From Actinomycetota bacterium (GTDB lineage: Bacteria; Actinomycetota; Acidimicrobiia; Acidimicrobiales; VFJN01), in the NCBI GenBank assembly GCA_046744265.1, contig JBKPAS010000116.1, positions 1 to 24,129 of the forward strand: a stretch of DNA of 24,129 bases. Reading direction: 5' to 3'. Shown here one piece after another: positions 16,215-24,129 of this stretch; position 1 is the first letter of the stretch; every line of letters begins with the position of its first letter. The position numbers were made by a program, and so were the translations under genes. The notes beneath the pieces are model-generated. The model had not been told where the DNA came from. It searched no databases and saw only the letters and a list, made by a program, of their open reading frames with translations.

Positions 16215-18089
16215 TCAGCGGGACAAGGACGAGGCGAGGCGGGTGAGGAGGGGGGTGGCGAGAGCGTCTTCCAGGGGGAAGGGGAGCGCCAGGGACCAAT
16301 TGGGGCGTTCGATGGTCGTGCCCGGGAGGTTGGGCCGGTCGGGGACGGCGAGGCCGTCCTCGAGCGTGGCCGCCACCAGGGCCGACGGGCTGGCCGCCAG
16401 CCGGCGGTGGACGTCGACGATCACGTCCTCGACGGTCGAGTCGTCGGGCGTCCGGCCGGTGAGGTCGTGCAGGCGCTGGCGCAGGGCGTCCATCGCGGCG
16501 GGGTCCGGCTCGATGCCGGCCGCCCGCTGGTCGGCGTCGTCGGCGCCGGTCCACGCCCCGGCGATCGTCGGCAGGTCGTGGGTCGTCACGGCGGCCAGCG
16601 CCTGCCACGGGTACCGCTCGGGCGGCTCGGGCTCGAACCACGCCAGGCGGTAGGACAGAACGCCCGCCTCGGCCAGCGCCTCCCGGACCTGTGTCTCGAC
16701 GGTCCCGAGGTCCTCGCCCACGATCACGGCGCCGGCCCGCACGCTCTCGACCGCCAGCACCGCCAGCAACTCGTCGCCCCGGTAGCGGACGTACGCCCCG
16801 TCGGCCGGCCCCCCGCCCGGCGGCAACCAGAACAGGCGGAAGAGGCCCATCACGTGGTCGATCCGGACACCGCCGCCGGAGTTTGGGGAACGATCACCGG
16901 TCCCCCCACCGAGCGCCGCCCGCCACAGCGACGCCAGCGGCTCGTACGCCGCGGCCCGCAGCTTCCACGGCACGAACGGCGGCAGCCCCCAGTCCTGCCC
17001 GAACCGGTTGAAGGCGTCGGGCGGCGCCCCGACGCGCACGTCCGCGGCGAGCAGGTCCTGCATGATCCAGGCGTCGGCGCCGTCGGGGTCGACCCCGACC
17101 GCCAGGTCGGTGAGCAGCGGCAGCGCCTGGCCGCCCCGCCGGAACTGGTCGTCGAGCAGGAACTGCACCCACGCCCAGTACCGCACGCGCTCGGCCCGGG
17201 CGGCCGCGAACGACGCCACCGCCGCGGACGACGGGTGGCGGTGCTCGGCCGGCCACGTCCGCCACCCCGAGCCGTGGTGCTCGGCCAGCGCGCAGAACCG
17301 GGCGTAGACCTCGATCTCGTCGCCCTGGTCGGCCCGCCACCGCTCGAACCTCGTGTCCGCCCCGAACCGCACCCACAGCCGGTCGAGCGCCCGCCGCTTC
17401 AGGACCCACGCCCGGTCCCGGTCGATGACCCGCGACCCGTTCAGGCGCCGGGCCTCGGCGGCCAGCGACGACACGTCGGGGTCCTCCCCTGCACCGGGGA
17501 TGTCGTCGATGCACAGGTACAGCGGGTTCCGCCACCGCCGGCTCGACGGGTAGTAGGGACTCGGCTCGACGCGGTCCAGGGGCAGGGGGGCGTGCAGGGG
17601 GTTGAGCGCCACCATCCCGGCGCCGTGGTCGCGGGCCCACCCGGCCAACAGCGCCAGGTCGGCGGCGTCGCCGACGCCCCAGCTTCCCGTCGACCGGCAC
17701 GAGTGGAGCTGCACGGCCAGCACCCAGGTCCGCAGGTCAGGCGGTAGGTGGCAGCGGCCGGGCGTGACGATGAGCCGGGTGACCGGGCCGCCGTCCCGCG
17801 GCCGCAGGTCGTGGTAGCCGATCGGCAGGTCGGGCGGCAGGGCGGTCAGCCCGGCCAGGGCGGTGCCGTCCTCCAGGGTCAGGTCGCACGGGGCGAGCAG
17901 GGGCTCCGCGGCGCCGGCCCGCACGATCCACAGGGGCCGGTCCTCGGGCGGCCCGGCCTCCCACTCCTCCGGCCCCCCGGCCGCGCCCATGGCCGAGTGC
18001 AGCGCCGCGGCCGTCTCGGCGGACGTGGGGTGCCACGTGCCGTGGACATCGACGTATCCGTCGTCGAGGCCCCAGGGATCGGTCGCCAT
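16215..18089 (-). CDS. malQ: 4-alpha-glucanotransferase (GH77 amylomaltase)
   Basis: QLHS.RS..SWGVGDAADL, NPLHA, SPYYPSSRRWRNPLY, DLAVG, GAPPDAFNRFGQDWGLPP, RIDHVMGLFRLFW, GEDLGTV, TTHDLPT, NLPGT...RPNWS. Confidence 0.95.
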   Translation of the reverse strand: MATDPWGLDDGYVDVHGTWHPTSAETAAALHSAMGAAGGPEEWEAGPPEDRPLWIVRAGAAEPLLAPCDLTLEDGTALAGLTALPPDLPIGYHDLRPRDGGPVTRLIVTPGRCHLPPDLRTWVLAVQLHSCRSTGSWGVGDAADLALLAGWARDHGAGMVALNPLHAPLPLDRVEPSPYYPSSRRWRNPLYLCIDDIPGAGEDPDVSSLAAEARRLNGSRVIDRDRAWVLKRRALDRLWVRFGADTRFERWRADQGDEIEVYARFCALAEHHGSGWRTWPAEHRHPSSAAVASFAAARAERVRYWAWVQFLLDDQFRRGGQALPLLTDLAVGVDPDGADAWIMQDLLAADVRVGAPPDAFNRFGQDWGLPPFVPWKLRAAAYEPLASLWRAALGGGTGDRSPNSGGGVRIDHVMGLFRLFWLPPGGGPADGAYVRYRGDELLAVLAVESVRAGAVIVGEDLGTVETQVREALAEAGVLSYRLAWFEPEPPERYPWQALAAVTTHDLPTIAGAWTGADDADQRAAGIEPDPAAMDALRQRLHDLTGRTPDDSTVEDVIVDVHRRLAASPSALVAATLEDGLAVPDRPNLPGTTIERPNWSLALPFPLEDALATPLLTRLASSLSR

Positions 18090-21758: not shown

Positions 21759-21834
21759 CGACGTAGTAAAGAGAGGCCCCGGCTGCCGGGCAACGGGACT
21801 CCTGCTCAATCAACGAAGATCGAAAGGAACGCTC

Positions 21835-22416
21835 TTGGCCACCCGTGTCGTGATCGCCGAGGACGAGGCCATCATCCGCCTCGACCTCAAGGAGACCCTG
21901 CAAGAGGAGGGGTACGAGGTCGTGGGCGAGACCGGCCGCGGCGACGAGGCCGTCCAGCTCGTCCGTGACCTCGAGCCCGACCTCGCCATCCTCGACATCA
22001 AGATGCCGGGCATGGACGGGCTCGCCGCCGCCCGCGAGATCGCCGGCGAGCGGCGGGCCGCCGTGCTCATCCTCACCGCCTTCAGCCAGCGCGACCTCAT
22101 CGAGCAGGCCCGCGACGCCGGCGCGCTCGCCTACCTGGTCAAGCCGTTCGAGCGCAGCGAGCTGGTCCCCGCGGTCGAGGTCGCCCTCGGCCGGTTCAAG
22201 GAGATGAAGGCGCTCGCCGACCAGACCGCCAGCCTGGAAGAGCAGCTCGAGACCCGCAAGGTCGTCGACCGTGCCAAGGGCCTGCTCATGGACGAGCACG
22301 GTCTGGCCGAACACCAGGCGTTCTCGTTCATCCAGAAGCGGGCCATGGGCGAGCGCATCACGATGCGCAAGGTGGCCGAGCGCGTGATCAGCGGCGAAGT
22401 CCGCCCGACGGCGTAG
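21835..22416 (+). CDS. pdtaR: REC-ANTAR response regulator (PdtaR-like)
   Basis: RVVIAEDEAIIRLDLKE, PDLAILDIKMP, LTAFSQRDL, AYLVKPF, ANTAR part LETRKVVDRAKGLLM...AF.FIQKRAM; TTG start with SD AAAGGA. Confidence 0.9.
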   Translation: MATRVVIAEDEAIIRLDLKETLQEEGYEVVGETGRGDEAVQLVRDLEPDLAILDIKMPGMDGLAAAREIAGERRAAVLILTAFSQRDLIEQARDAGALAYLVKPFERSELVPAVEVALGRFKEMKALADQTASLEEQLETRKVVDRAKGLLMDEHGLAEHQAFSFIQKRAMGERITMRKVAERVISGEVRPTA

Positions 22417-22432: not shown

Positions 22433-23788
22433 GTGGCCGGCGACCCCCTCCTGCTGATCGACGGGAACTCGCTCACCTACCGCGCCTTCTTCGCCCTGCC
22501 CACCGACCTGTCCACGGCCTCGGGCCAGGTCACCAACGCGGTGTTCGGCTTCACGTCGATGCTGATCAACCTCATGCGCGACCACGGCTCGGGCCGCGTG
22601 GCGGTGGCGTTCGACCGGCCCGAACCCACGTTCCGCCACGAGCGGGTCGAGACCTACAAGGCCAACCGCGACGCCGCGCCCGACATCCTGCGCCAGCAGA
22701 TCGGGCTGGTCCGCCAGGTGGTCGAGGTCCTCGGCATCCGCATCCTCGAGACCCCGGGCTACGAGGCCGACGACATCCTCGCCACGCTGGCCACCCAGTC
22801 CCGCGACGCGGGCATGGACGTGATCGTCGTGACCGGCGACCGCGACACCTACCAGCTGGTAGAGGACCCGCACGTCACGGTCCTCTACAACCGGCGGGGC
22901 GTGTCCGACTACGTGCTGTACGACGAGGCCGGCATCGAGGAGCGCACCGGCGTGCCGCCCCGCCTGTACGTGCCGTACGCGGCGCTGCGGGGCGACACGT
23001 CCGACAACCTGCCCGGCGTGCCCGGGGTCGGCGACAAGACCGCGGCCAAGCTGATCAACACGCACGGCGGGCTCGACGGCATCTTCGAGCACCTCGACGA
23101 GCTGACCCCCAAGCTGCGGTCCAACCTCGCCGAGCACGAGCAGCAGGCCCGCACGAACGCTGAGGTCATGCTCCTGGTGCGCGACGCGCCGGTCGGCGCG
23201 ACCATCGACGAGCTCGTCCGGCGGCCGGCCGACATCGACGAGGTGCGGCGGCTGTTCGACTTCCTCGAGTTCCACAGCCTGGCCGAGCGGCTGTCCGAGG
23301 CCATCGGCGAGGACCTGGGCGCGACGGGCCCGCCGGTCGACGTCATCGAGGCCGAGGTCACGACCGTCGACCAGCCGTCCGAGGCCGTGGCGCTGCTCGA
23401 GGCGCTGCGGACGGGCTCGGTAGGCGGCGAGGCCGGGTCGCCGGTGGCCCTGGCTGCCACCTGGATGGCCGGCGAGGGCCGCTCCCCGCTCGAGGGCCTG
23501 GCGTTCGTCACCGACGCCGCGGCCGGCGACGTGACGTGGATTCCGGCGCCGACGCTCGACGACGAGGGCGTGCGGGCCGGGCTGCGGGCCCTGGTCGCCC
23601 TGCCCGACGACGGAGGCCGCCCCATCGCCACCCACCAGGCCAAGGCGCTCATGCGGTCGCTGCTGGCGCTCGACGTCGACGTCCGGTGCCTGGCGCTCGA
23701 CACCGCCATCGCCGCCTACCTGCTCGATCCCGCCGAGTCGCGTTACCTGCTCGACGAGATCCTCCGCCGGTACGCCCAGGCCGAGCTC
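22433..23788 (+). CDS. polA: DNA polymerase I, codons 1-452 (5'-3' exonuclease + vestigial 3'-5' exo domain); interrupted
   Basis: LLIDGNSL, TNAVFGF, YKANR, EADD, GDRD, GDTSDNLPGVPGVGDKTAAKL, DTAIAAYLLDP. Similarity ends at ...RYAQAEL and the frame continues as antisense-derived sequence with no stop to the window end. Confidence 0.9.
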
Positions 23789-24129
23789 GTCGAAGAGCAC
23801 CGAGCGCAGCTGCTTGGTGGAGTTCACCGTGAACGCGCGGCCCGCCGCCTCCTGGATCTCGGCCTCGAGTCGCCGCACCTCCGACTCGAGCCCGTCGGCC
23901 AGCTCGCGCAGGTAGGCGACATCGACGCCAACGCCCACCTTCTCCATGCGCGCCAGGACGCCGATCAGCGGACGCTCGACGTCGTCGTAGAGCGCGCGCA
24001 GCCCGCGCGCATCCATCGCCTCGGCGAGCGCGGGCGCCAGCCGGGCCACCGCGAGCGCCCGGCGGCCGGCGTCGTCAGCCGGGTCGGCGCCCGTGCCGTC
24101 GAGGTCGAGCTGATCGGGGGGCGGCGCGT
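23777..24129 (-). other. polA: Inverted internal segment of polA (end of exo domain through the thumb region)
   Basis: Minus strand reads DAPPPDQLDLDG...LYDDVERPLIGVLARMEKVGVGVD.AYL...FTVNSTKQLRSVLFDELGL, the PolA sequence that should follow AEL on the plus strand. Confidence 0.9.

Follow-up and report, generated by a model that had tools for sequence, protein, structure and literature searches.

A probable inter-genome chimera at the strand flip of polA on an Acidimicrobiales contig tip

In a metagenome-assembled genome (MAG) of Actinomycetota (GCA_046744265.1), the gene polA changes its coding strand shortly before a contig ends. This raises the question of whether a single gene has been inverted, in the living cell or in the laboratory, or whether DNA from two organisms was joined. 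The window analysed here is the complete contig JBKPAS010000116.1 (C141; 24,129 nt), with the junction located 341 nt from the contig end. The MAG comprises 1.11 Mb in 153 contigs, being 55% complete with 0.23% contamination. Its organism, named X in this text, was placed in Acidimicrobiales by named relatives, which are mostly soil MAGs, and the second organism, to which we attribute the flipped piece, is named Y. The features around the junction are the following:

21802..22416, + strand: response regulator with an ANTAR output domain, attributed to X (Response_reg, 3.1e-27; ANTAR, 1.8e-19)
22433..23776, + strand: 5' part of the polA attributed to X, with the 5'-3' exonuclease domains and an exonuclease-like middle domain (Pfam)
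23777..23788, both strands: junction 12-mer CAGGCCGAGCTC, read as QAEL in X (+ strand) and as ELGL in Y (- strand)
23789..24129, - strand: polA fragment attributed to Y, which begins at the end of the exonuclease-like domain and reaches the first polymerase-domain residues; contig tip

The coding layout agrees with that reported in the first-pass annotation, which was made from the sequence before this analysis. On the + strand, positions 22433-23788 code for 452 aa of PolA, up to the motif YAQAEL (the end reads ...RRYAQAEL), and the next PolA segment is found on the - strand at 24127-23777, with 117 aa ending in FDELGL. The + strand part contains the Pfam domains 5_3_exonuc_N (PF02739, 1.2e-55) and 5_3_exonuc (PF01367, 1.6e-26), followed by the exonuclease-like middle region. 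The - strand segment reads APPPDQLDL...NSTKQLRSVLFDELGL, and its end corresponds to the first positions of Pfam DNA_pol_A, a match that the profile search located on the - strand at 23774-23917. In 11 relatives with an intact PolA of ~900 aa, this segment comes 4 codons after the YAxAEL motif. Both fragments are therefore PolA, as given by the Pfam matches and by the colinearity of each one with the ~900-aa protein.

Near-identical sequences to the flipped piece were found in L030 and L031, metagenome contigs of two separate projects that were retrieved by an exact 33-mer of the piece and share 97.9% identity with each other. Positions 23777-24129 (353 nt) have 99.15% DNA identity with L030:3481-3833 and 98.87% with L031:1371-1723, whereas positions 22449-23757 have only 72-77% nucleotide identity with the adjacent DNA of these contigs and are in the opposite relative strand. 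The response-regulator gene shows 81% DNA identity with L031:5476-6049, again in the strand opposite to that of the flipped piece, and C141 outside the tip is 66-81% identical in nucleotides to the syntenic genes of Y. The same difference is observed in the proteins, with 100% identity to Y over the 117 aa of the flipped piece against 60-61% for the N-terminal part of PolA. In the whole MAG, the 353-nt tip of C141 is the only match of at least 99% to the 8.7-kb contig of Y. The window copy has 3-4 differences from L030 and L031, all of them synonymous. With 3 differing sites between the two contigs themselves, the window copy falls inside the population diversity of Y.

In both soil-metagenome contigs the polA of Y is intact (910-913 aa), and the 913-aa open frame contains 5_3_exonuc_N, 5_3_exonuc and a full DNA_pol_A domain (4e-141). 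Within this frame, which reads ...ARYAGLELRSPDAPPPDQLDL ... VLFDELGLQPQKRTKTG..., the piece stands in the normal forward order. The GC content is 0.751 in the tip and 0.727 in the polA part of X, the piece being too short and the values too similar to discriminate between sources. The two PolA fragments belong, by these comparisons, to genes of two different organisms. The earlier assumption that they are the halves of one gene is contradicted by a tip that is 99% identical to Y on a contig otherwise 66-81% identical to it, and the last 353 nt of C141 do not seem to be part of the X genome. Y itself appears to be an Acidimicrobiales bacterium from a lineage other than that of X. The exact 33-mer of the flipped piece was unmatched in a search of one genome per species, which indicates that Y has no near-identical species representative in that genome set; the nearest species representatives to the Y piece have about 65-71% aa identity.

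The relationships of the two parts with other genomes are also incongruent. The N-terminal part of PolA has 70-86% aa identity with relatives from the same family, 87% with G002 and 61% with G028. The flipped piece, on the other hand, has 49-60% with the window's own family, and its nearest family, found in a sample of 400 genomes of the class, is another one, with 71% to G028; the conclusions are independent of the unpublished genome G300, also listed there. Over the columns of the flipped piece, the same-family relatives have 62-94% identity with each other. The ratio between the identity of the flipped piece and that of the N-terminal part varies from 0.56 to 0.78 for the window, whereas every pair of intact relatives gives a value of 0.83-1.01. 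Across 93 genomes, the identity of the flipped piece tracks that of the Y N-terminal part (r=0.64) better than that of the X one (r=0.30). Comparing the identity of each side to relatives was enough to reveal the probable chimera ahead of any read data. As a separate observation, Acidimicrobiales-type polA 5' parts with 52-79% aa identity to X are also carried by four loci (L040, L056, L061 and L092) from public MAGs whose bins are labelled Thermoleophilia, Chthoniobacterales, Gammaproteobacteria and Burkholderiales; these are probably misbinned contigs or mislabelled bins.

In public metagenomes, about 20 soil or rhizosphere runs from 19 studies match a 930-nt query across the junction, none of them with more than 28% of its sampled words, and with the 341-nt piece alone as query the fraction in these runs reaches 84%. 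In run X1, the fraction was 0.28 of 92 words for this query against 0.84 of 31 words for the 341-nt piece alone, and the word count was the same in both queries (26). The equal counts indicate that the ~20 runs contain the flipped piece and next to nothing of the adjoining X sequence; by the word search with the 930-nt query, the X part of the stretch is in none of the indexed runs. Record 16 of run X2 (1205 nt) matches 23777-24129 with 3 mismatches and continues beyond both ends of the match, by 731 nt after the window end and by 121 nt on the 23777 side, and in record 6 of X1 and records 20 and 21 of X3 the match ends exactly at 23777. The native context of Y was found in the two metagenome contigs and in Logan contigs of three runs, all diverging from the window at 23777. 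The junction from X to inverted Y is absent from the four runs compared and from the two metagenome contigs with the piece.

The sequence at the crossover, CAGGCCGAGCTC, occurs once in the window, at 23777-23788, with 0.02 occurrences expected by chance. In the intact gene of Y, its reverse complement GAGCTCGGCCTG codes for ELGL. The + strand of X and the reverse complement of Y share exactly this 12-mer. To the right of it the window is Y, and the left flank differs at once, CAGG being preceded by ...GCC in X and by ...CTG in the reverse complement of Y. Since the 12-mer is the only common sequence at this place, the crossover must be within its limits. At the junction site the closest relative of X has CAGGCCGAGCTG, and the true overlap between X and Y may be of 11 nt instead of 12. 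The overlap exists because, with the codons preferred in these high-GC genomes, Q-A-E-L and E-L-G-L are encoded by reverse-complementary sequences; the match between these two conserved motifs across species is coincidental. An intact polA with a natural 12-nt inverted repeat, as postulated in the first-pass annotation, was not found, the longest inverted match being 4-8 nt in the 11 relatives and 6 nt in Y.

Exact words common to X and Y are present upstream, with 28, 49 and 41 nt at 16834-16861, 21902-21950 and 22069-22109, respectively. If the two organisms were sampled together, these words could tangle X and Y in a de Bruijn graph for k up to 49. In polA there are no common words of at least 21 nt, and at the junction nothing is shared past the 12-mer. 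A plain k-mer join was ruled out by the lack of such words in polA.

We suggest that the end of C141 is, with high probability, an inter-genome chimera formed at a reverse-complementary microhomology of 12 nt or less, either in library preparation or in assembly. The two sides of the junction match different source genomes, the junction is not reproduced in independent data, the piece has its native Y context elsewhere, and an intact polA of the X type is found in relatives of X. C141 would run into the 5' half of its own polA and join the opposite strand of the Y polA at the 12-mer. Most likely, a single-stranded X fragment would have paired through its 3' end with the reverse-complementary 12-mer of a Y fragment, and the annealed molecule would have been filled in at end repair or extended by amplification. 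A junction read from it would then carry the dead-end tip of the X contig onto the Y reads.

Such a chimeric library molecule is the most likely origin of the join. A point against a chimera is that de Bruijn graphs usually have k of at least 21 and an overlap of 12 nt could not give a plain join in them, so some additional step must be assumed. SPAdes-type gap closing permits joins on overlaps of about 10 nt, and a tip-joining or gap-closing step of the assembler that takes overlaps of ~10 nt would be a less likely origin. Another point against it is that the contig ends 10 nt from the Y position homologous to the X breakpoint. This proximity would be due to chance, with a probability of a few per cent, or the assembly graphs of both populations would have broken at the same variable linker. 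As a weak indication of the latter, contigs of Y from two other runs also end near this place (L030:3826-3845), record 24 of X3 at 24122 and record 8 of X1 at 8 nt past 24129, and the linker after the conserved xEL motif may be polymorphic and break assembly graphs. This join does not demonstrate a broken polA in X; the 3' half of the gene is simply absent from a bin that is 55% complete.

A real genomic event would give the same deposited sequence. In it, an inverted fragment of the Y polA, acquired by X through DNA uptake, would have entered the X genome by illegitimate recombination at the 12-nt microhomology, and the polA of X would be truncated to a stand-alone 5'-3' exonuclease without the PolA polymerase domain. 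Both organisms are soil Acidimicrobiales with a common gene order at the polA locus, and a PF00476 profile search found no polymerase-domain sequence in the MAG except the flipped fragment, but this absence is uninformative because the MAG is only 55% complete. We consider this event very unlikely, since it would have to fall exactly at a contig tip and its junction was found in none of the four runs compared and neither of the two metagenome contigs with the piece. Furthermore, the PolA N-terminal part was matched in 30 of the 30 relatives searched, with an intact PolA of ~900 aa in the 11 from which the gene was extracted (one runs off its locus), and an identity of 99% with only synonymous differences at population level would need a very recent transfer. 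A fold-back chimera, formed by template switching inside a single polA molecule (MDA or strand-split type), is even more improbable. It would explain why the strands switch at a short microhomology close to the contig end, and why the contig stops about 10-14 nt short of the point at which the fold would run back into its own sequence. However, it requires both arms to come from the same template, and their identities to Y are 99% against 72-77% in nucleotides and 100% against 60-61% in protein; in the native contigs, the piece lies beside the N-terminal part of Y, not beside that of X. The contig-end artefact proposed at first as at least as likely as an inversion was therefore right in kind and wrong in being placed within a single polA, as the polA genes of two organisms were joined.

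The reversible switch that the first-pass annotation had put forward finds the least credit of all, close to none. In that reading, a segment of ~350 bp between 12-bp inverted repeats would flip, uncoupling the flap-endonuclease and polymerase halves of PolA. All that fits it is a strand flip located at a 12-mer that, in reverse complement, would code for a conserved motif. The segment that should flip is foreign (Y), the paired inverted repeats are reduced to one copy of the 12-mer in the window, no 12-nt inverted repeat is native to the intact genes of the 11 relatives and of Y, and only the native orientation, in Y context, was seen in four runs and two contigs. There is no recombinase gene on C141; in the MAG, which is 55% complete, no match was found for the serine recombinase profile (PF00239), and the only match for the tyrosine recombinase one (PF00589) is on another contig (C80). 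If real, an inverton splitting PolA would be remarkable, and the evidence excludes it here.

Among known systems, C141 is most readily compared with the interspecies chimeric contigs of MAGs, the targets of metaMIC, DeepMAsED, ResMiCo, GUNC and DeepMM. It shares with them the two source organisms and a short foreign part at the tip, unseen by marker-based contamination estimates (0.23%). The benchmarked chimeric contigs differ in being joined mostly through longer shared sequence, such as conserved genes and repeats of at least k, whereas C141 joins homologous genes in opposite strands over an overlap of at most 12 nt. In the CAMI data, interspecies chimeric contigs were reported in 69% of the near-complete MAGs from MEGAHIT and in 20% of those from metaSPAdes (bioRxiv 10.64898/2026.10.15.759294). 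For chimeric reads joining opposite strands, short reverse-complementary regions were present in all examined cases (Haile et al., Nucleic Acids Res 2018, PMC6344851), and the strand-split mechanism documented there consists of single-stranded fragments annealing at such regions, followed by end-repair fill-in. The opposite-strand join at a short GC-rich reverse-complementary stretch and a foreign part at the scale of a library insert (341 nt) bring C141 near these fragments. The cases in PMC6344851 are intramolecular or between nearby sequences of one human genome, in damaged FFPE DNA, whereas C141 would involve two bacterial genomes from soil.

The resemblance with invertons (hin/gin, fimS and the intragenic invertons of gut bacteria) is superficial, limited to a coding-strand flip at a short repeat; unlike them, C141 has no second repeat, no recombinase on the contig and no evidence of both orientations, and its segment is foreign. 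The inverted template-switch chimeras of phi29/MDA, which Lasken and Stockwell are said to have described in 2007, reportedly arise typically within one molecule with an intervening deletion. C141 is similar to them in its inverted junction at a microhomology and differs in that the two sides do not come from the same molecule.

The feature appears, as far as sequence comparison can tell, to be a data-quality artefact, neither a gene switch nor a broken gene. At a contig tip, the deposited MAG would contain 353 nt from a different species, which matters as quality control only, and a trimming of C141 at about 23776 is called for, together with a flag on the partial PolA protein predicted from it. 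When a conserved gene flips strand near a contig end, a second source organism should be tested first. The + strand frame is not closed by any stop codon within the antisense of the foreign piece and is still open where the contig ends (565 aa), and the product of gene callers would be a 565-aa 'partial PolA' without polymerase domain, in which the last 113 residues are antisense nonsense. Protein databases may hold a partial 'PolA' with this 113-aa nonsense tail derived from C141 (22433-24127, + strand).

Upstream of the junction, the response-regulator gene directly adjoins polA, and the same order is found in Y (L031). This neighbourhood of a response regulator with ANTAR and polA presumably resembles the pdtaR-polA arrangement of mycobacteria. 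Within this gene, soil-metagenome contigs pile up on 21930-22029 with a summed word depth of 400-700, marking a very conserved stretch of the receiver domain.
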